Shown: positions 878-37,656 of the stretch, piece by piece
Numbering within the stretch: the stretch's first letter is position 1
Layout: each line of letters starts with the position of its first letter
Origin: Octopus sinensis
Taxonomy: Eukaryota
Direction: 5' to 3'
Length of the DNA: 64,000 nt
Assembly: GCF_006345805.1 (NCBI RefSeq)
Contig: NW_021832374.1
Span: forward strand, 318,343-382,342
Program-made: the position numbers and the translations under genes
Notes under the pieces: generated by a model
Told to the model about the DNA's origin: nothing
The model's input: only the letters and a program-made list of their open reading frames with translations
The model's database searches: none

Positions 878-2545
878 GAAGAAGAAGAATATGGTTTATT
901 TAATACAATAGGTCCAAAAGAAAAGTGGCCGAGGAATTAGAGCTTAGGGGGCGTGATAACGAGAGCCACGAAGGTCTCAACTTCGGTTTTGCCCCAGGAG
1001 ACTGTCTTATCTCCCTCAGCGAATTCGAGTTTTTGCCAGGATCGCGTCAATCGTGTCAACACTCCGCTCATGCAGGTCTTCCAGCGGACTGCTGAGCTCC
1101 AGGCCGAATGCCAGTTTGATGGCAAATCGTCTGGTTTTTTCGAGTTTGGCGATTAGAAGGTCCCTTTCATCAGTTTGGTACCAGCCCTCCGAGCCATAGA
1201 TTATTAGTGGCTGAACACAAGTCTGGTAGATGTGTAGAAACGTTTCTGCGCTTAGACAAAAACGCCTTAGTCCTTTTAGGATTTTCGCTCCTTGTTTCCG
1301 CTTTGCATGCACATGGGGTTTGTATGACCCGGTGGGGTCTATAGTTACTCCCAGGTAACGTAGGTTCTTCGATATAATCAGGTTCCCATAATCCTCGAAA
1401 GTCGGTTTTTTTGTCACGACCCATTGAAATCCAACAAATGGTACTTTTGTCCAGAGCGAGATTCAAGCCTTTACCATTGCACCAGATTTCAAGTTCCTCC
1501 AAGTACGGTTCTAGTCTGCTCCAGGACAACCTTCTTCTGTGTCGGGGTCCCCACATCGAGACATCCGTAACCAAGATATCGTCCGCGTAGATAATTAGTC
1601 TGCTCGTAGGAAAATGTGGTTTCGGGACGTCGGCCAGAAATATATTAAAGAGCAAGGGGCTGAGAACCGATCCCTGAGGAACACCTCTCCTCAGATTCAC
1701 GGCCTTCGATAGCAAATTTCCACAACGAATGAACGATTTTCTCTCGCACAAGAAGTCCTTAAGCCATCTGACAGTTTTTCGCCCAGCACCCAACTCCGCT
1801 ACTTTATCTAACAACCCCAAGTGCCAGACACTGTCAAAGGCCTTGCAGACGTCCAGGCAGACCGCCGTTAGGCAGGCTTTATGGAGTTTGGCCCGAGACA
1901 GTTCTTCCTCAAGAAGCGAGAAACAGTGACCGGTTGATCGACCAGGTCTAAAACCCCACTGTTCCTCCGCGAGTATATTATTTTGTTCCACGTAAGCCGA
2001 TAAATGATTGAAAATAATTCTTTCCATTATCCTCGACGTTGTGCAGATAAGGCTAATTGGCCTATAACTTCCTGCCTGCGTCTTTGGTTTTCCAGGTTTT
2101 GGGATCATTCGGACGATTGTTCGTTTCCAGCTAGATGGGACGTGACCATTGTCCCAAATGGCATTGAATAGTTTCACCAGAATACGAAGCAAGCATCCGG
2201 GTGCCTTCTTGAACACCTCCATAGGGATAAAGTCAAATCCAGGAGCGTTGTTCTTGCAACCTCTGATTGCTTCGAACGTCTCTTCCGTGGTTATTTCCCT
2301 GCACAAGAGTCCATCCAAAACAAGTTTTGAGCGGGAATTTCGGGTCGACTCCTCAAATATTTTCAGAGGCAGGATAGACGAAGGGTCCACCTCCTGAATC
2401 CCTGCTAGCTGCTGGCGGAAGACCTCCGGGACTTCCTCAGTAGGAACAAAGCCTCCATCCACCGATTTAAGAATGATTTCTTCTCCTTTCGCCTCCGTCC
2501 CGTTCATTATTTTGTATAGTTTCCAGAATATTCGAAAGTTGATCA
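878..2545 (-). mobile_element. 5'-truncated non-LTR retrotransposon (jockey/I-group-like RT), frameshifted
   Basis: RT motifs APGFD, YRPISL, QWGFRPGRST, DVCKAFDSV, GVPQGSVLSPLLF, YADD; YLGV in a shifted frame (1016..1417); 3' end has AATAAA and a (TTC)n tail near 878-900. Confidence 0.9.
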
Positions 2546-2991
2546 AAATTCAAAGAGGATCCTTAATTAAAAAGATAAACTCAAAAGTCTTAAAAAAACT
2601 CTTTTTAGCAGCGTGAACCACCCCCGCATATTGACGTGTCGTCGTAATCAAAGTGGCTTAATGATGGGAATAACTCTTTCTGATCAGAAGCGTTATTCTA
2701 AGATGCAGATCCTTTCCTGATATTTGGTACTTGTCGTTGTAATTTGCTATTTCTCTTCTGGTGCCAGGAGTTTGTCAAAATAACCCTACATGCTTAGTTA
2801 TTGGAAAACTTAAATTTTTTATTTCTAAACTATCTTCTTGGTGGTTATCTCGCCATAATCTCAATTACGTGTTTTATCGAATATATTTGTTATGTATTCT
2901 CAATTACAGCCAAAGTTTTTTGGTGGTTAATTTAAAAACACGTTAAAGAAACATACGTTTGTAAGTTATAACCAAAACGTTTCATTAGTAA

Positions 2992-4179
<1,188 letters not shown>

Positions 4180-16000: not shown

Positions 16001-16084
16001 GTTTAATCGATATTAATTGATAACGAATCATTCAATAAATGGGGTGCGTTTACCATCTAAAAAATTATAAAATCATTTTAATAA

Positions 16085-16340
16085 CAGATGTTTGGATTCT
16101 ACTATTCACATAGCAACAAAAAGACAACAAATTTCTTTCCCATCGGTAAGTGTCACCTGACTTGCTCCGAGTGGCTATTGAGCACGCACAAATCTATTGC
16201 TTACATTCGTTACTTTTGCTCCCTGGTGACATTAAATCAAATTCAAGACCGAAAGAACATGAACATTTTCTTTCCATCATGCAACTGAACTTTTATGGCA
16301 TTCATTTTCGGGGACGAGATACAATTCCTATTTTTGATAA
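16085..16340 (+). mobile_element. Degenerate 5' end of an Ingi/Vingi-like LINE (partial ribozyme, decayed 2A, APE start)
   Basis: LLLLPGDIKSNSRP..LSIMQLNFYGI parallels LLLIRCGDVEQNPGP..LTILQLNINGI; nucleotide similarity to the 3' half of the ribozyme (ttggat..tagcaacaaa). Second copy at 33877-34130. Confidence 0.65.
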
Positions 16341-16691: not shown

Positions 16692-16789
16692 CAACTTTGT
16701 TTAATTTTTTAGCCTTTGGAAAAAATGAGATAAAAACAGGTATGTTTAGAAAAGAAAATTTTATTAAAAATCTACAAGTGTCCCAAGAC

Positions 16790-17240
16790 TAATTTGACCC
16801 ACTGTAGATGTGTTGTTGTTGAGTGCTGTGGTCGGAAACCATGTTGTGACTTTGAGAGAGTGAGGAAAGGGTAAATTGATTTCAGGACAAATTTTTCTAG
16901 GATTTTTGATATGACAGAGATAAGTGAGATTGGCCTGAACGAGGCGGGGTCGCAGGGGTCCTTATTGGGCTTCAAAATTGGAATTTTAATAGATTTTTTC
17001 CAGACCATAGGTATTAGACCTGAGTTTAGCGATGTTTTGAATATATCCGATAGTGCAATCAACCCATTTTGGCCAAGATTTTTCAGATGGTATATGCAAA
17101 GACCGTCGGGTCCACAAACGTGAGAATTCTTAGCGTTTTTGATGAGTTGGCTTATTTCAGAAATCGATATAGTGATTTCTGGAGAGGGGATGTCCTTGTG
17201 ACTGTAGTAACTTTTATAATGTGAATACAGACACATTTTC
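16790..17240 (-). mobile_element. RT N-terminal fragment of Ingi/Vingi-like LINE
   Basis: GPDGL..HLKNLG, WKKS..IPILKPNKD...SFRPISLISVISKILE, QHGFRPQHST; close to the 18810..20500 RT. Confidence 0.85.
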
Positions 17241-20200
17241 AAGTTTAAGATATGTTTAACAATCTAATTTTATCATTACAGTTCCATCTCAAATAATACG
17301 ATTTTTAAGTTCCCAAAAGTCAACCGTACGCGATCTATTATGTATTTTAAATTACTTACTGTATAGGCTTTTTTCAAAACAGAAAATGTCTAAATTTACA
17401 AATAGGTCTCAGTCAATAATGTATAATGTATAATTTTTTTATACTTAGATATTCTCATATTAGGCCCGAAAATAGAGGGCTTGAGAAAAGTATGGAAATA
17501 GACACAATTTGAAAGAATACTGCAACATTAGAAAAGAAGAAGCATATCGTCCGTTAGTTTACTTATAGTATCCTTAATCAATCAATATGATATGCAAAGA
17601 GCAATCCATCCAATCAAATATTCGATGTCGCTAATTTACTATATTTCCTTGTTTTACTTTTTATCTTTAATAAGTTTCAATTGCTACATACAGTAGTCAC
17701 AATTAAATATACGATCACTAAAGATACATGTGTAGTACTTGACTCTATAAAATGATTGTTAATTCCACAAATGGTGCTACTTTAGTTTTCTTGTATTTAA
17801 ATACCTGAATTTAATAACCTGTAAAAAAGAGTTTAGTATTGAGTAACTTTACAGTAACATGCAAATAAATACAATTTTTGTGCTAATTAATATCATTCAA
17901 CTAAACCAATATTTCTCAACTATTATTGTAAACAAATGTATTTTCATAGAAAATCTAGATGAGAGCAAAATTCCGAATTTTTAATCATAAAAATATGTAT
18001 CAACATTCGGACATGTAATACTAAAAACATAGGAAGCATTGATCAATTACTTATTATAAAAAACAAATAATTTGGTGAGCAATTGAAATCGCACTTAATT
18101 AAATATTTGGATGCTACTAATTAATTAACACGGTTATTGATAATGCTCCGCACTTTCGCAATTAATTAGTACCATATATTAGATACAGGAGTCACAGTAC
18201 GTACAAAACGTTAACGTGGATTACTTTGATAAATTAACTAACTGGTCCAAGGTTCCCAGCAGTTCTTCCAAAGCAAATACATCCTCACTTTGACGGATTC
18301 TGATATACCAGCTGCTCTACAGGAAAGATTGGAGGAAGGCACGACTTTGATTGTGATAGAATATTCGTCACTTCAGTTTCTCAGTTCGAATGCTACTACT
18401 GGGATATACAGAAACAATAAATTGTCCAATCATTCATACGTACGATTGATGTTTGACTAAACACTCGACGAAAGAAGACCCTATAATATAAATTTGTATT
18501 AAAGTTTATTAATTTTAATATAAACTAATTTTACTAACCAATAATTATTTCATTACGGTCAACATAGATATAATAGATATACTATCGCGCTCTATTTGTT
18601 GGTTTATTAATTATTTATTTTGTTATAGTGAATGGAGAGTAATATACTGTGGACTACTCACTCTTTGGTGGACTGTATAATAAAAAGAGACCCAGAAAAA
18701 GAACCGAAATATGAACCGAAATATACTCCTTTCATCAATCTTATTATTTATTTATTTATTTATTACCCCCGGCCCCTTCAATTGAAGGAAGCCGGTGGCT
18801 AACAGAACGTTAGGGCAATGTCGGACGCTCCCAAAGATCCCCGATCGTGATCCGGTGTTCCGAGGAAGTAGAAGGCGGGCCTGGACAGGAGAAAAGGTCG
18901 TTGAGGGAATAGGAAGGGGTTATTTCACCAAGACCGATTTTTATGCGATAATCGTGTAGGCCAGTATGGTGGCCACAGCGGAGACGAGCCAAGTTCACTC
19001 GGGCTTCTCTTGAGAGGGAGGATTCGATCTTATTAATTGGCGGCGGAAGGCGTCCCAGAAGCTTGTTTATTCCAAGACATCTGATTGCCCTCGTAGCCAC
19101 CAGGTCGTGAATCCCCTTCTGGTTAATGTCCGGAGGGGATCGTATAAGCTTGCGGACTTTGTCCGCGAGGGTCGGAACTATTCTCCTGTTGTTAGTGGAG
19201 TGCCAGAGGAAGTAGCCAGGGTGATTTAGGGTTCGGCATTTGTCAAGAAATTGCAGCCCGAGCATTTCAAAATGGTCACTGATTGGGAGGATTTTCGATT
19301 CCCAATGTAGGTGGTCGGTAGGTGTCGTTTTTAGACAGCCGGTAATAATTCGTAATGCTGAGTTTTGAGTTCTCTGAAGTTTTTCAAGGTTTGTATTAGA
19401 TAAGCAGGAACCCCAAGCAGGGATGGCGTAGTTCATAGTTGTTCTAATAAACTGCTTGTATACAGTTGTTAGACTTTCCTTATCCTGCCCAAATGAAGTC
19501 CCCGCAATAGCTCGGAGCACATTGAGTTTTTTCTGGGATTTTCCACAGATATATGAAACATGTTTCGAGAAGGACAAACAGCAATCAAATATCAGACCCA
19601 AGATTTTGGGGGATTTTTCAACTGGGAGTGGAGTGTTGTCTAGGAATAGTTTAGGCTCTAAGTTGAACTGACGGCGGTCAGTTGTGAATAGCGTAACAGA
19701 TGATTTGGAAGGAGAAGGTTGAAGAAGATTGCATTTCAGCCAGGACGAAAGAGTGTTCATGTGTTCCTGCAGAAATCCAGAAGCGGTGATTATGTTTTGG
19801 TGGCGGGAGGCAAAAATTAAGTCATCAGCGTAGGAGAGGAGTAGAGTATTATTGTTCGTCGGGATATTTGACAGATGTAAGTTAAATAAGGCAGGTGAAA
19901 GGACCGAGCCTTGGGGAACTCCGTTAGGCAAGTATTTGTAGCGTGAGTAAGAAGACATGATTGTGGTGCGACCAAGACGCCCAGAGAGAAAAGAGAGTAG
20001 CCATGACTTTATTTGGTGGGGGAATTCCGTATCGGTTATTTTCCTACACAGAACGTGTCTTGACGTTCTGTCAAATGCCTTTTCAATGTCGATGGATGCA
20101 ATAATTGTTCTTTGAGGTGGCTTATGATTGTTAAACCCATCCGCAATGAATTGTGTCAGTTTTGAAAGATGGGTGGAAGTGGAATGCAAAGAACGAAAGC

Positions 20201-21840
20201 CATGTTGAGATTCAGCAAATGGGAGGAAAGGTTTTATGATGCTCAATACAACTCGCTCTGTTATTTTTGAAACCACTGAGATCAAAGAGATAGGTCGAAA
20301 AGAGGAGGGGTCAGAGGTATCACGATTTGGCTTTGGGATAGGGATGATGGTAGATTTCTTCCAAAGCATAGGAACCAGACCATGGTTGATCGAGTATTCG
20401 ATTAAATTGGTCAGAGCCAGAAAGCCATTAGGACCCAGATTTTTTAGGTGGTGGATGGCAAGGCCATCAGGACCTCTGGCGTTAGAATTCCGCGAGTTAA
20501 CAACAAGTTGCCTGGTAAATGATTCTGGGATGTTAATATAGTCAGTAGAATTGTCATTTGACTTATAATGTGATTTTCTTACGAAACGGAGATCCTTTGG
20601 GGTAGGAAGGTGACTGATTTTTGCATAATGGCGAATTAAGATGTTGGCTTGATCCTGGAAAGATAGGACAGACTTTTTGGTCGAGATACCGGTGGCATGT
20701 GAGAGGGGACATGTTTGCCTCGTGTGAATTTTCTTGAGGGTTCTCCAGAAAGCACGGGATCCAGTATTTGGGGTTATTGAAGTGATAAAATCATTCCATT
20801 CGTCAGTTTTATGTTTCTTGATTAATTCGTCAATTTGTTTGTTGATTTCTGCTAGGGATTCTCCATTTCCATTGATAGAAGTCGTCGATTTGATCCTCCT
20901 TCGTTTTTTGAATAGTTCAATGATAGGTGGGGGGAAGTGGAGGCCGTGATTTCGGATGAAGCCGCGGGGAATAAATTTTTTGTCCGCAGAAAGAAGTGTA
21001 CTAGTAAAGAAAGCAACGGCAGCGTCAAATGATTGAATGGAGGAGCAAGAAAAATTACTGAATATACGTTCAGTTTCACTCCTGAACGAGTCCCATTTCC
21101 ACGTTTGTAGTTAATGTAGGTCTTCGTAATTCTCTTCTTTACAGGGTGATGGTTTATTTTGATTAGAATAGGATTGTGGTCCGTTGGTAGGTCGTACAGA
21201 ACTGTCCATTTGGCGTCGAGGGCGATGTTTGGGGAACATAAGGTAATGTCAGGAGAAGTGTTTGAATCTCCAGGTCGCATTGCACAGCGGGTGTGTAGAA
21301 GAGGGTCGTTTAGAGTGACCAATTCTTCCGCATCCGTTGTGATTTGCTGGCCACGTTTGTCAGTTTTGTTTGTGGATAACCAGAGAGGATGGTGGGCGTT
21401 GAAGTCGCCACATAGAATACAGTTTTCAATTGAAAAAAGAGGCAGTAAGTTCGGTGTATAATTGGGAGCACATGACGAAATCGGGGGGATATATGTGTTA
21501 ACAACAGAGTAACATATCTTGTTAATGTTAATTTGAATAGATGAAATTTCGGTAAATCGATCATTAGTTAAGAGAGATTCAATGTTGGCAGTTGAGTCTG
21601 CAAAGGGAATGGCCTCGTGAATGAGAGTAATGAGACCACCGCCAGGCTTTCCAGACTGGCGGTCACGACGAATGGTGGAATATCCCTTAAAACGGGGGGT
21701 TGGGATTTTGGAGTAAGTTTGGTCTCTTGAATAAGAGCTATATCAATAGAGTTCGTGTGTAGAAAGTAGCGTAGGTCATTGCATTTCTTGGAAATCCCGT
21801 TGATGTTCAATTGAAGGATGGTTAGTGTTCTAATAGGCTC

Positions 21841-21900
21841 AGGTCCAGGGTTTTGTTCCACATCTCCACACCGAATCAACAATAGAGTCAGGGAACGTAA
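21841..21900 (-). other. 2A-like ribosomal StopGo peptide
   Basis: LRSLTLLLIRCGDVEQNPG|P matches the D(V/I)ExNPGP consensus, immediately before the APE domain. Confidence 0.9.
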
Positions 21901-21968
21901 GCTTGGCGCTCGTCCCGTAGCCACTACCAACCAAACCGTTGACAGGTTGGTTGGCAAGGGGGAAAAAT

Positions 21969-22039
21969 TGGTTCTGTTTGTTGCTGATGAGAAATCAGCA
22001 TCCAATCGTCTCCACGAGAAGGTGAACCACATGACGATC
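21969..22039 (-). ncRNA. HDV-like self-cleaving ribozyme at the LINE 5' end
   Basis: P1 GAUCGUC/GACGAUU (G1-U wobble); J1/2 AUG; P2 UGGUUC/GAACCA; P3 (A)CC/GG(A); L3 UUCUCGU; P1.1 GG; P4 UGCUGAU/AUCAGCA; J4/2 A-C-AAA-CA. G1 is exactly the element boundary next to the TSD. Confidence 0.85.
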
Positions 22040-25597: not shown

Positions 25598-28500
25598 GTA
25601 GTTGCCGATTTTTAAACCAATAATAACTTAATAGTTAATCAGAAACTAAGCAGATCTCACTCCAGCTCGCTGATATCCACTCTCCTTCTCTTGGAAGAAG
25701 AGTCTACTTCCAGCTGCCTCTTACTCCCCACTACCACATCTGATTCAACCATTGCATCTTCTTTAGCATTCATTGGGTCGTCTTCATTTTTGCATGCCAT
25801 CTCCACATACCGGTTGGAAGCAGAAGCGTATTCTTCACCAGATACCTTCATTCCGTGCTTGTGTTCGATCATCATACTCTCGAGCGTTCTTTTCAGTACA
25901 ACGGATTGGATGTATGTCCTCGTTCCTGCTTCAATAGATAATTTCTTCATATAATTTTTGAAGCATTTCGAGACAACTCCATCCCATGTCATAACCACAG
26001 GAATTATTTTTACTTGACAGCTATACAGAAGCGAAAGCTCACTTGCCAATAGGTCATACTTGTGACACTTTTCAACCTCCACTTGCTTGAGGCGATCCTG
26101 TGAAGTAATACCCACTTCAATTAGATTTATTTCGTTTCTGACTTTGTCGTGGACAAAGATATCTGGCTTGTTATATTCTACTTTTGTTTCGGTGAGGATT
26201 GTAGAATCAACCCTGATTTCAACTTTTCCCGTCGACAGTGTTGACTGAACAGAATGTCCCTTCAATCGTCTTGCTTTTTTGAGTCCATACATTCGGCACA
26301 AGTTAAGGTGAATACACTTCACAACTTCGTTGTGTCTCCGGAGATAATCACTGTTGAGCATTTTACCACACTGAGTAGCCATGTGGTCAACAGTTTTCTT
26401 GCTTTTCTTACAATGATTGCATAATGAGTCAGCGGATGCAAAGAACAAGTTTCGATCTTGCAAAAGACAATACAATGCTTCGCTTCGTGGCCCATTATTT
26501 CCATTAGATAGCCATTCTGAGGATGCAGGTAAATCAACATTAGGTTCATCCACACATTTGAAAAGCACAGAATGTAGTGCTTTAGAACTAATTTTCTTTT
26601 GTAAATATTGTATCTGACTGGACTTTAGAGACTCTATAGTAATACTCTTCTATCAATAATTGCATATTTGGAGGATAGAAATCCTGCGATCATAGCCAAA
26701 TGCCATTTATTCATTTTAATTACACGCAGAATCCCCGCCCTCCGTAAGCATATAGTTGACATATTTTCCAGACTCGTAAGGAACTGAAAAGCATTAGTTC
26801 ACTTTTGAAAGTAACTGATGAAAGCCCTCTTCCAAGAGCCTTCCGGTTTAAATACAGTCTCTCTTTATTTGCAGGTTTGAGATGTAATCTGAGCGACGTA
26901 AGCAATTGCCGTATTTGTCTGTCAATATCATCAAATTCAGAAGGTTCAATATTGATTAGCCCAATATAATAATTATATAGTGACAATGCATATTCATTTA
27001 TAGCACGAAACAGATTCACAGAGTTGAGTTTTGTTTTCGATAGCATAGTTATCCTCTTCTTAACATTCTCAAAGATAGAGTCCATAACTCTATTCTTAAG
27101 AACATTGCTTCCACCATCTTCAAGTACACCCAAATACCGATATCCATTGATTCCGTCAATAGTCTTACAACATGATAATGATTCCAAATTAGACGCTGAT
27201 TTTTCTGAATTCATCTCCAAACCAACAATTTTAAAAAATCCGTTAACAGCTTCCATCATTTTGAGTAAAGTGTCTTGTTTGAGAGCAAATATTTTTAGAT
27301 CGTCAATAAATAGCAAATGATTAGTAGAATATGTTAACATATTGGGATCTTCCTGGTTAATTTCAAGTTTTGGAAACACGGAATTAAGGATCCTGCTTAG
27401 AGGATCTAATACCATAACAAATAGTAAAGGAGACAATGAGTCTCCCTGTAAAATTCCTCGGTTTAACTTCACTGATCCAATTCTTCTACCTTCCATATGC
27501 AGCTTTACTGCCCACTTCTTAACTACGCTCTTCACAAAGTTTACGATCCAAAGCGGGATTCCAGAACAATCCAAAACGTGAAACAAAAAATCATGATCAA
27601 CTGAGTCATATGCTTTCTTCACATCGACCCAAGCAGAATAAAGGCCATTCCCGTACTCCTTGTTCAAACATTGGTTAATGAGAGCTTGCTCCTTGGCGCC
27701 TTGACAATACTTCCTCGTTCCAAGTTGGTTGTCTGAAATTAGGCCAAATGCCTCGACAAAATCAGCCAGTTTTACATTAACACATTTGGTGACAAGTTTA
27801 TACAATGTCGGCATACACGTTATAGGACGTAAGTCCTTCGGGGTCTCACAATCATCTTTTTTAGGAATCAAATATGTTATTCCAGTGTAAAACCAACTTT
27901 CAGGCATGTACTCTCCATTAATTATTCGGGTTATCTCGTGACACAGAAATCCATGTAATGACTCCATCTTCTTAATGAAAAAGTTATATATCCCATCACA
28001 TCCACATGCCTTCCAGTCAGGAAGATACTTAATAACATTTCCAAAAAACTCTTCCGTAAACTCTGGAAGCATATGTTCAGCACAAGTAGTTCGTTTTCCA
28101 ACAACGTCATAAGATTGAGGCCTCCATTTCTCTCGCTCCAGACTTTTTGCCAAAAAGAGACACATTCTTCATCATCAAATCCATACAGCGTCACTTCCTC
28201 TTTCTTTGTTAAGTCTCGATAGAATCTTTTTCGATTTAATTCAAAGCACTGATTATCCTTACGAAATTGCTTCCTTGAATTATGAACTTCTATTTTCTTA
28301 TTGTTAATCCTAATCAGGTCTTGCAATAATATCTGAATCCTCGACAGCTCACCTTTCTTAGTTTTCTTATACCCATAGCGACAGAGAACATCCATTACCT
28401 TTTGCTTTTCAGATGGAGGTAGTGTTTGATTGGAATGGGAATTAACAATTTCCAATTCTGCAGATAATTTTGAAATTTTCTTTTCAATATTTTCTACCCA

Positions 28501-33800: not shown

Positions 33801-33876
33801 ATATTAATTGATAACGAATCATTCCAATAAATGGGGTGCGTTTACCATCTAAAAAAATTTTAAAATCATTTTAATA

Positions 33877-34130
33877 ACAGATGTTTGGATTCTACTATTC
33901 ACTTAGCAACAAAAAGACAAAAAATTTCTTTCCCATCGGTAAGTGGTCACCTGACTTGCTCCGAGTGGCTATTGAGCGGGCACAAAGCTATCGCTTACAT
34001 TCGTTACTTTTGCTCTCTGGTGACATTAAATCCAAGACCGAAGGATCATGAACATTTTTTTTCCATCATGCAACTGAACTTTTATGGCATTCATTTACTG
34101 TCGGGGACAAGATCCAATTCCTATTTTTGA
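33877..34130 (+). mobile_element. Degenerate Ingi/Vingi 5' remnant (paralog of 16085-16340)
   Basis: LLLSGDIK..SIMQLNFYGI. Confidence 0.6.
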
Positions 34131-34301
34131 TAAGTTCGTGGATATGGAAGGGATATTTGCAGTGGATGTACATATATTTTTAAGAAAGTAGCTTCTAGTG
34201 AACAGTGGTAAGAGTCCTGCCGTCTTTGAACGTACATTTTGTTTCTAAAAATGTGTCACCTTCAGTAATAAGTAGGCAGTCGCTGTAAAATTAATACACT
34301 A

Positions 34302-35479: not shown

Positions 35480-36300
35480 TTTAATAAGTTGATATCTCTC
35501 CACGTGCTTCATAAACTTCCAAACTTCTTTTTTTCATTGACATAACTAAATTTTCTAGGTATTCTTTCGGTATTGACTCCCATATCACAACTAATTTTTT
35601 CTCCAAATCTTTCAAGTTTTTTGGCGGTTTTTGCAATAATTTTCTCTTCATCATTGCCCGAACATGCTCAATTGGATTAAGGTCAGGTGATTGAGACGGC
35701 CAATCAAGAATTTTATATTTTCTATCGCATATAAATTCTTTAACTACTCGAGAACTGTGGCATGCAGCATTATCTTGTTGAAAAATAAATGAGTTTAACC
35801 CCCTTTTTTAGAGCTGATTGCTCCAGATTATTCGACAAAATGTTTAAATAATAAGCACTGTTTAATTTTCCATTTAAAATAACAAGATTGCCGACGCCTT
35901 CATATGAGAAACATCCCCAAACCATTAACTTTCCTCCACCATACTTAACAGTAGGTACGATATTGGACTTTTCATAGGCAGTACCGTTTTTTTTGCTGTT
36001 ATAGATCCTTATTTTGCTGTTATAGACTTCAAAACATGACTCATCGGAGAAGATGACTTTCTTCCATTCTTCGTCAGATATGGCTAGAAACTTTTTCGCA
36101 ATTAACCATCTGGATTCGATGTTTTTGGATGTTAAAAGAGGTTTGTGTTTTGCAGCTCGGGCATGTAATCCAAATGAATTTAGTATACGACCAATTGTTA
36201 TGGGAGATACGTCCACATTAAATTGATTTTTTGTTATCTCAGAAAAAGACACAGCAGAAATTGAGGGTTCATCCCTTTTGCTAGTTTCATGCTGTTTAAC
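35480..36300 (-). mobile_element. Tc1 (DD34E-type) transposase, 5'-truncated and frameshifted
   Basis: KPLL, WKKVIFSDES, PTVKYGGGKLMVWGCF, FQQDNAACH, WPSQSPDLNPIEH. Confidence 0.9.
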
Positions 36301-37656
36301 CATCAAAATACTAACAGAATCATAAATTTTTATTAAATAAAAGATTATTTTGATATTTATTAAAAATTTTTTCAACAGACTCGAAGGAGTTAAAAAAAAT
36401 ATCATCAAGCTTAAATATCAGATCTGTATTATAACGAGCCTGCAAAAATTAAGGGAATTTGTAAAAAAAATTCGGTAACTTTTTTTTATATATTGCGGTA
36501 TATGGAAAATAATATTTCGTGCATTAAATCAAATAAACAGATTGGCGAACCACAATAGCATAGCAACATGGCAATTAAATATTAATTAAATCCACAAAAG
36601 GCTACCTGCTCAGTTAAACATTAAATCTAATTAATTGATTATTATCATCGTCTTATTAGCAAAGATCATAAATGCGAAAAATGGGAATTAATAATAAGAT
36701 TATGATAATCGAATAAAATCGTAATAACCTCATTTGTTTAATTAATCATCTTGATCGGATAATGAGCTTTGATTTTATCGATGATTCATAAAATAATTAC
36801 TATCGATTGAAAGGATAAGAGGCTATAAATCCAGCTGTTAACACATTTACTCAAAAAATATTTTAGACAAAATCAATTAAATTGATTTCCAGTCATGACT
36901 ATCGAATGTCACTCAATAAATTAAGCCCATTGATAACAGCGGGATATCATAAACTTACTTTTGAAATATGTCTTAATGTGAAATTACCTAAATAAGTACA
37001 TTTGTTATTAAATAGGTTATTAGACAATTATCTCCATACCGACCTAATTGACCGAAATTCTTAATAATTTCATTAAATGATACAGAATTCCTGACAGTGA
37101 ATTGGTTTGGTGTGGTTATATTTCGACGTATAAAATGTGGTTTGCGGATTTACAAAGCTTGAACAGATTCGTGCATTCTAAACCCGTAAAATCAATTAAA
37201 ATTCCATTAAAAATTTGAATATTCCCCAATACGTTCTTGATCGATAGAACGATTTTTAATTAATATTTATTTTTATCTCTTAAGCAAGCATATTTATTGA
37301 CATTATTATATCCGGCAATTAAACTATTTCAATCACTAGTAGACATTCAATTTGTCTGGAAAATATGTCACAGCCTATCACTCTCAAGAGATTCAAGTGC
37401 GCTCTGTGACAATTTCATCAATTGACAGAAGGAATAATACAAGACATGACATTCAACCTATTATTAGGAGCCATAGAAAACTAAAATCTCATCCTGCTAC
37501 AATATTGCAGGTAGCAATTATCTTAATTTAACGTTGCCTTATTACACAAACGATTACAAAGCAACACCAATAAAACGTAATTACTCAGCGGCGATTGCGT
37601 TCAAGTCAAAATTACTGCAATTTGCGCTTATTTCACTCTTTATTTCATTGTGCCTG

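Follow-up and report, generated by a model that had tools for sequence, protein, structure and literature searches.

The combination of a self-cleaving ribozyme and a 2A peptide at the 5′ end of a LINE is already known from the trypanosome L1Tc/ingi elements (PMC3185411, PMC4035085, PMC3383444, PMC3708506), as an earlier sequence-only reading of the locus described here had pointed out. In L1Tc/ingi (Pr77/L1TcRz plus 2A), an HDV-like fold within the first ~75 nt cuts at +1 (PMC3185411, PMC4035085), and the elements combine a TSD and a single ORF with a 2A placed directly before the APE domain (PMC3185411, PMC4035085, PMC3708506). The element studied here shares these features, with the cut at +1 being predicted. 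Unlike L1Tc/ingi, it has no RNase H and resides in a 2.7-Gb genome; furthermore, the predicted start of its ORF lies within the fold, at nt 8, while the L1Tc/ingi papers, in their available text, place the ribozyme in the 5′ UTR.

Vingi elements (Vingi-1_EE, Vingi-1_Acar) are similar to the present element in having a compact single ORF with APE and RT but no RNase H, and in being sister to RNase-H-bearing 2A elements (PMC13708176, PMC3708506). They differ in that no 2A was detected in Vingi by PMC3708506, as far as its available portion extends, and in that Vingi is absent from the six ribozyme-bearing clades given in the accessible part of PMC5786205, in contrast to the fold predicted here. 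In Ingi-1_AC from Aplysia and other animal 2A LINEs, a single ORF carries the 2A at 40 to 80 aa from its N-terminus (PMC3708506), comparable to the 2A location at aa 56 in our element; unlike in our element, a ribozyme is not mentioned in the available text of that paper. The HDV-like ribozymes of R2 and RTE elements are likewise 5′ processing folds, and they are flexible outside their catalytic C and a handful of L3 bases (PMC3774820). These ribozymes belong to other clades, however, and in the accounts available they have no 2A and an ORF downstream of the fold, with a long J1/2 in R2. An open problem in this field is the translation of retrotransposon RNAs that are ribozyme-cut and uncapped (PMC6765202, PMC11331408).

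Here, we analyzed the 5′ end of a LINE within a 64-kb window of Octopus sinensis DNA (the whole stretch under study, 64,000 nt), together with its copies and relatives. In the accessible literature on Vingi and ribozymes, the Vingi-1 UTR, HDV-like ribozymes of Aplysia ingi, and start codons inside ribozymes, with patents outside the scope, the layout described below was unreported. The occurrence of the fold together with a 2A in a clade that lacks RNase H and for which no 2A had been reported, with an ORF running through the predicted ribozyme, seems to be new, as does a derived clade that has the fold and the AUG but lacks the catalytic consensus.

A single-ORF LINE within an RNase-H-less clade

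The LINE occupies positions 22039-18747 of the minus strand and is a 3.3-kb, single-ORF APE-RT element of a young family, here termed family A. Its first nucleotide, G1 (G22039), had been proposed to abut the TSD; in agreement with this, a 16-nt repeat found at 22055-22040 and 18746-18731 ends directly at G22039. The minus strand also carries a (TAAA)n tail (18747..18764), an APE endonuclease region (PF14529; 20852..21840), and an RT (PF00078) with a C-terminal region that is devoid of an RNase H domain (18810..21110). The window copy is frameshifted in the APE region and has a stop at codon 154, while an open frame of 1092/1093 codons, beginning at the AUG described below, was found in 2 of 14 full-length copies in the Octopus genome.

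RNase H was absent from the 1093-aa protein, which gave three Pfam matches, none of them to RNase H at E ≤ 1, and PF00075 was listed for none of the best 120 RT-region relatives. To place the element, a FastTree phylogeny was built from 90 RT pieces, leaving out families B and G as well as six loci and P0015, which were too short; one row, L025, probably represents the sequence of a neighbouring element. Family A fell inside an RNase-H-less clade (support, 1.00), and the RNase-H-bearing, often 2A-bearing elements formed a separate clade. Because the single ORF, the APE-RT composition, the lack of RNase H, and the tree position fit the descriptions in PMC13708176 and PMC3708506, the element likely belongs to the Vingi clade, the sister of Ingi, with Vingi entering this comparison through published descriptions alone; a cluster look-up returned no Vingi name. 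The Ingi clade proper was ruled out by the missing RNase H domain. The solved structures found were confined to L1 and R2.

A predicted HDV-like fold at the 5′ end of the element

The sequence-only reading had folded the first 71 nt of the element into an HDV-like nested double pseudoknot, and every helix that it named was found at its place on the minus strand. In this predicted ribozyme (21969..22039, minus strand), for which a descriptor and covariation provide the evidence, the cut is predicted 5′ of G22039. P1 comprises 7 bp (22039-22033/22010-22004) and begins with a G1-U wobble, J1/2 is an AUG at nt 8-10 (22030..22032), and P2 is formed by 22029-22024/21974-21969. P3 (22023-22021/22013-22011) has an A-A at its first pair and is closed by L3 (22020-22014), P1.1 uses G22003 and G22002, and P4 (22000-21982) is followed by J4/2 (21981-21975), which contains the likely catalytic cytosine, C60 (21980).

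A descriptor of this fold, composed after the sequence had been seen and therefore tailored to it, matched both strands of the window only once, at 22039. On shuffled sequences it gave 2 matches in 60 windows, none in 600 element shuffles, and none in 5000 shuffled versions of its 5′ 230 nt. The Rfam/Infernal check that had been suggested for the fold went against it: no Rfam HDV-type model matched the window or nine loci, either at the gathering score or at E ≤ 10. The nested minimum free energy of the 71 nt was ordinary (z = −0.75, from a program that folds without pseudoknots), downstream bases are able to pair with the P1 and P2 strands in an alternative fold, and four of the seven P1 pairs are A-U or G-U.

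Covariation, which had been named as another check, was measured in an alignment of eight hand-picked, mutually related sequences from families A to D. Pairing was found in 92.8% of 181 cells, compared with 28-50% in slid-partner controls, and both sides had changed in 6 of 23 pairs. Three of five measures beat 500/500 shuffles and two were not above control, and kinship among the aligned sequences can produce such covariation without structure. U20, C22, G25, C60, A62, and A63 were invariant in all eight sequences. The first P1 pair was G-U in six and A-U in two, with P1 being 7 bp, and P1.1 alternated between U-G and U-A. The proposal that the J4/2 cytosines act as catalysts was thereby narrowed: C60 is invariant throughout families A to D, whereas C64 is variable and was dropped as a candidate.

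The P3 mismatch and the long J4/2 had been suspected to be a family-specific variant, and this was borne out for the mismatch only. The A-A was present in 28 of 30 family A copies, which excludes a private mutation of the window copy, and the first P3 pair is A-U in families C and D. J4/2 was also identical in 28 of 30 family A copies; it is 2 nt longer than in HDV and in all of families A to D consists of the C plus 5 nt before P2. Since families C and D have the long J4/2 together with an A-U pair, it is a trait of the clade and not a repair of the mismatch. Active R2 ribozymes with a P3 mismatch and with a 4-bp P1 have been described (PMC3774820). Judged by position, shuffles, and covariation, a chance HDV-like match is very unlikely, and the comparison supports an HDV-like fold that is conserved and lies precisely where the element begins.

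Copies of family A begin at G1

A genome search for family A returned 41 matches, 30 of which were analyzed. As anticipated for a cut at this position, copies started at G1 in 22 of the 30, and an A replaced G1 in three more (a few loci share flanks). A TSD was identified in 11 of 14 full-length copies; it ended at nt 1 in seven of the 14 (two being the same insertion), one base off in two, and at nt 5 and nt 10 in one each. In two full-length copies, L032 and L038, some of the ribozyme's own 5′ bases are repeated ahead of the element, resembling an RNA-end template jump. L039 (family A) and L336 (family E2) lie at nearly the same site in the same flanking sequence on different contigs.

Among 12 short loci, six were 5′-inverted, representing five distinct events in which the first 150-165 nt are reversed against an internal 3′ piece. 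In all three loci with both ends available, the TSD encloses the whole inverted insertion. The two pieces lie in opposite orientation, which excludes internally deleted elements of the RIME/NARTc type. Across the five events, the end of the inverted piece falls at nt 1, 2, 10, 1, and 3, respectively, where it is joined to internal element sequence. Since nt 1 is joined to element sequence, the RNA template itself ended near G1; such ends do not distinguish a ribozyme cut from a transcription start.

The point at which these 5′-inverted or internally primed copies begin, element nt 150-165, corresponds to 21875..21890 (minus strand) in the window and is a hot spot. Among L026, L027, L030, L045, L046, and L047/L048, the 3′ pieces of the inverted copies run from nt 1815-3164 onward, and one copy, flanked by a TSD of its own, comprises just nt 1-162. 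The inversions known from L1 are contiguous, unlike the far-off 3′ pieces of the family A inversions. Protein may hold the 5′ module beside the target at this spot; alternatively, a 5′ RNA fragment arising from a 2A stall may serve as template.

Raw RNA runs contained 484 reads over the element in one of four runs (X12), with both strands alike, and none in the other three. These reads showed no pile-up at G1, but they are unstranded and so uninformative on the 5′ end. At window position 21994, the top P4 pair differed in 14 of 16 X12 reads, a variant absent from the 30 aligned genomic copies.

A reading frame from inside the fold to the 2A-like peptide

The frame of the J1/2 AUG had been reported to stay open through the ribozyme and a hairpin, and indeed it runs into GDVEQNPG/P (the slash marking the predicted skip) and the start of the APE. 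In the open copies no second in-frame Met occurs ahead of the middle of the APE; the AUG stands alone up to codon 252 in L033 and up to codon 555 in L031. Across eight families, a readable 2A was found in 80 of 99 loci. Start site and 2A shared one frame in 62 of these 80, of which 56 were also stop-free and 48 also had the AUG; 18 copies were out of frame. The commonest AUG-to-2A spacings were 165 nt in A, 171 in D, 147 in E1 and E2, 156 or 153 in F, 156 in G, and 135 in H, and deletions of 6 and 21 nt in family G preserve the frame. Shuffled leaders remained open in 10-34% of cases, depending on the family.

The AUG was retained in seven families. In family F, the in-frame AUG lies 7 nt upstream of the J1/2 triplet, which itself is out of frame, although this start site was picked with the frame already known. 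Family C was in frame in one of four copies, with a C-run of varying length. No copy of the decayed family D combined AUG, frame, and absence of stops, and in some of them the start site reads ACG or UUG. The leaders share few N-terminal residues, and those are dictated by the RNA fold; thus, it is the frame through the ribozyme that is under selection and not the peptide. In the genomic HDV ribozyme, J1/2 is likewise an AUG, and one that is not known to code. A start codon that lies within a pseudoknot, 7 nt from an uncapped end, is poorly suited to scanning.

The hairpin in the coding leader (21924..21957, minus strand) held up in family A (z = −2.4) but not as a general feature. Because it was significant in just two of eight families, A and E1, it probably does not belong to the core of the module.

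The 2A-like peptide and its possible outcomes

The 2A-like peptide (21841..21900, minus strand) covers positions −19 to +1 and has a canonical core. The skip is predicted between 21844 and 21843, 5 residues ahead of the APE start. GDVEQNPG/P was the sole match in the 64-kb window, where 0.03 were expected, and the 2A core occurred in 24 of 74 related proteins. In P0003, P0007, P0024, P0027, and others, a Cys-rich (PHD-like) stretch lies between the 2A and the APE; this stretch is absent from the families of this genome.

From its sequence and setting, the peptide is fairly likely to recode translation, with a mix of skipping and fall-off. Of 11 look-alike 2As assayed in PMC13405545, whose library does not contain the present peptide itself, 5 did not skip, 4 caused fall-off, and 2 skipped, and three of the four closest look-alikes were in protein-reducing classes. 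It is therefore conceivable, although not the outcome we expect, that the 2A chiefly throttles APE-RT output through fall-off or reduced protein, rather than creating a clean N-terminus, a function that would be compatible with the ribozyme part of the module and that has been proposed before (PMC3894237). The five Leu residues in −19 to −10, including those at −14 and −13, fit the 'reduction' class, and 59% of the assayed ORF2p 2As lowered protein (PMC13405545). Trimming, by contrast, is consistent with a skip site just ahead of the APE and with leaders that differ among families, and the 2A of Ingi-1_AC skips at >97% (PMC3708506).

Sister families that keep the fold without the catalytic consensus

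Searching the genome at the protein level with the 2A-APE start as query yielded 142 matches; 63 divergent 5′ regions were examined, and further copies were added. At least eight families share the P1/P2/P3/P4 layout, and the HDV consensus is kept in families A, B, C, and D. Two stretches near 16115 and 33910 had been taken as remnants with a similar motif. They are indeed related, but they lie on the plus strand and belong to an older, decayed sister family, B: the first (16070..16340) retains the 3′ half of the ribozyme, a decayed 2A, and the APE start, and the second (33863..34133) is 92% identical to it.

In families E1, E2, F, G, and H, inspection by eye revealed a P1 of 5-6 bp, an altered L3, and no P1.1, and families F and H have no C in J4/2. 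Across the sister families the first descriptor matched A, C, and D only; a relaxed descriptor was likewise passed by A, C, and D and by none of E1, E2, F, G, and H. Given that R2 ribozymes are active with a 4-bp P1 and with a P3 mismatch (PMC3774820), only the missing C argues strongly for loss. A single clade (support, 0.99) unites E1, E2, F, and H, so catalysis was probably lost once. On sequence criteria, this derived clade appears to keep the fold and the AUG without the catalytic consensus. Individual loci of families F, G, E1, E2, and H (L097, L105, L109, L120, L136, and L283) retain P1/P2/P3/P4 and the in-frame AUG; in these families the L3, P1.1, and J4/2 consensus is gone and the 5′ junctions are ragged. 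Family G has a hairpin-like insert in L3.

The TSD adjoined G1 in one of two family C copies and was found in neither of two family D copies. In family F it lay 13-17 nt upstream of the shared start in three of three copies, and no adjoining TSD was present in six of six family E2 copies.

A metagenome scan yielded 80 loci, of which 16 were inspected and 11 upstream regions were scanned with the descriptor. L171, from another organism, has an HDV-like fold ahead of the 2A, and none of 300 shuffles matched; the AUG that it has there is not in the 2A frame, which itself is open through the fold. The other 10 scanned upstream regions, several of them distant or incomplete, contained no fold. In the distant relative L152 (positions 230-320), an HDV-like arrangement could be made out by eye, in which nt 8 opens an AUG ahead of a non-canonical 2A; the fold is partial, J4/2 does not satisfy the descriptor, and this copy has its AUG out of frame.

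A model for the 5′ module and its alternatives

The copies display the layout itself, boundaries at G1, covariation of the helices, and conservation of the frame from AUG to 2A. On this basis, we lean toward a model in which the predicted ribozyme frees the RNA at G1, the AUG within the same bases starts the leader, and the 2A releases APE-RT. The fold would form during RNA synthesis and cut 5′ of G1; cleavage with C60 as the catalyst is probable, and of the three activities it is the one we would most expect to occur. The cut would leave a 5′-OH end shielded by the fold. Ribosomes would then begin at nt 8 and translate a throw-away leader, and our judgment tilts only slightly toward use of this AUG on such a shielded 5′-OH RNA. 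At the 2A, ribosomes would either resume with Pro-APE-RT or drop off, which would both trim and limit the protein. The leader being discarded, its sequence is free for RNA structure, and this would account for the overlap of a ribozyme with an ORF. Because the derived clade retains the fold without the catalytic consensus, the fold likely has a second, non-catalytic job, such as 5′ protection or protein binding. HDV-like folds have been proposed to support uncapped translation (PMC6765202) and to aid template function as a structure (PMC11331408).

We consider it rather unlikely that an internal promoter produces a capped RNA starting at G1, which is scanned to the nt-8 AUG while the fold serves as a weak or back-up ribozyme or as a protective, protein-binding structure. 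Such a promoter would account for the G1 ends and would let the AUG be used with no need for uncapped initiation, and Pr77 of L1Tc is promoter and ribozyme both (PMC3383444). Families E to H have spread without the catalytic consensus, and the P3 A-A and long J4/2 of family A could weaken catalysis. However, families A to D retain specific catalytic residues while their helices covary, and the TSD adjoins G1 in family A and in one of two C copies but not in F or E2, a thin control given that neither of two D copies had one.

Less probable still is a division between RNA pools, whereby cleavage yields the template and the protein is made from other RNA, either capped, uncleaved read-through transcripts or by non-AUG entry within the fold, with the open leader merely delivering ribosomes to the 2A, which resets the N-terminus. 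Folding of the ribozyme and passage of ribosomes are mutually exclusive, and the 2A makes the start site irrelevant. The frame arrangement of L171 and the ACG or UUG of some family D copies are in line with this division. It leaves unaccounted for, however, the AUG kept in seven families and its in-frame shift in family F, since an open frame alone needs neither. Finally, it is highly improbable that chance produced the fold and that the AUG is incidental: the missing Rfam match, the ordinary nested folding energy, and the tailored descriptor are outweighed by the location at nt 1, the shuffle controls, the covariation, the separate fold of L171, and the conserved frame.

Returning to the model of self-cleavage followed by initiation within the fold, a bolder extension, which we judge somewhat less likely than not, is a dual-coding 5′ module, in which a self-cut, uncapped RNA would have its ribozyme translated from the nt-8 AUG with a 2A-disposable leader, and in which families E to H would have lost catalysis once while keeping the pseudoknot and the in-frame AUG. 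The candidate start codon, being inside the ribozyme and in frame across families, can be tested with one 200-nt construct. Sister families with and without the catalytic consensus provide a control that separates cutting from the other roles of the fold, and if the dual-coding module is true, they would form a natural live-versus-dead series for the non-cutting roles of HDV folds. If the clade is Vingi, both ribozyme and 2A extend to a group reported without them. Vingi has been used for RNA-based gene insertion, with a driver that 'unusually retains' its native 5′ UTR (PMC13708176); a dual-coding module, if true, may explain why that UTR is kept in the driver RNA.

Other mobile-element sequences in the window

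Two further LINE RTs are present on the minus strand at 1170-2549 and 26720-28168, with 29% and 21% RT-region identity, respectively, and both fall outside the clade of family A in the tree. A related RT fragment of a different family lies at 16772-17263 (minus strand), and a fragment of a Tc1/mariner-type transposase (PF01498) lies at 35770-36417 (minus strand).
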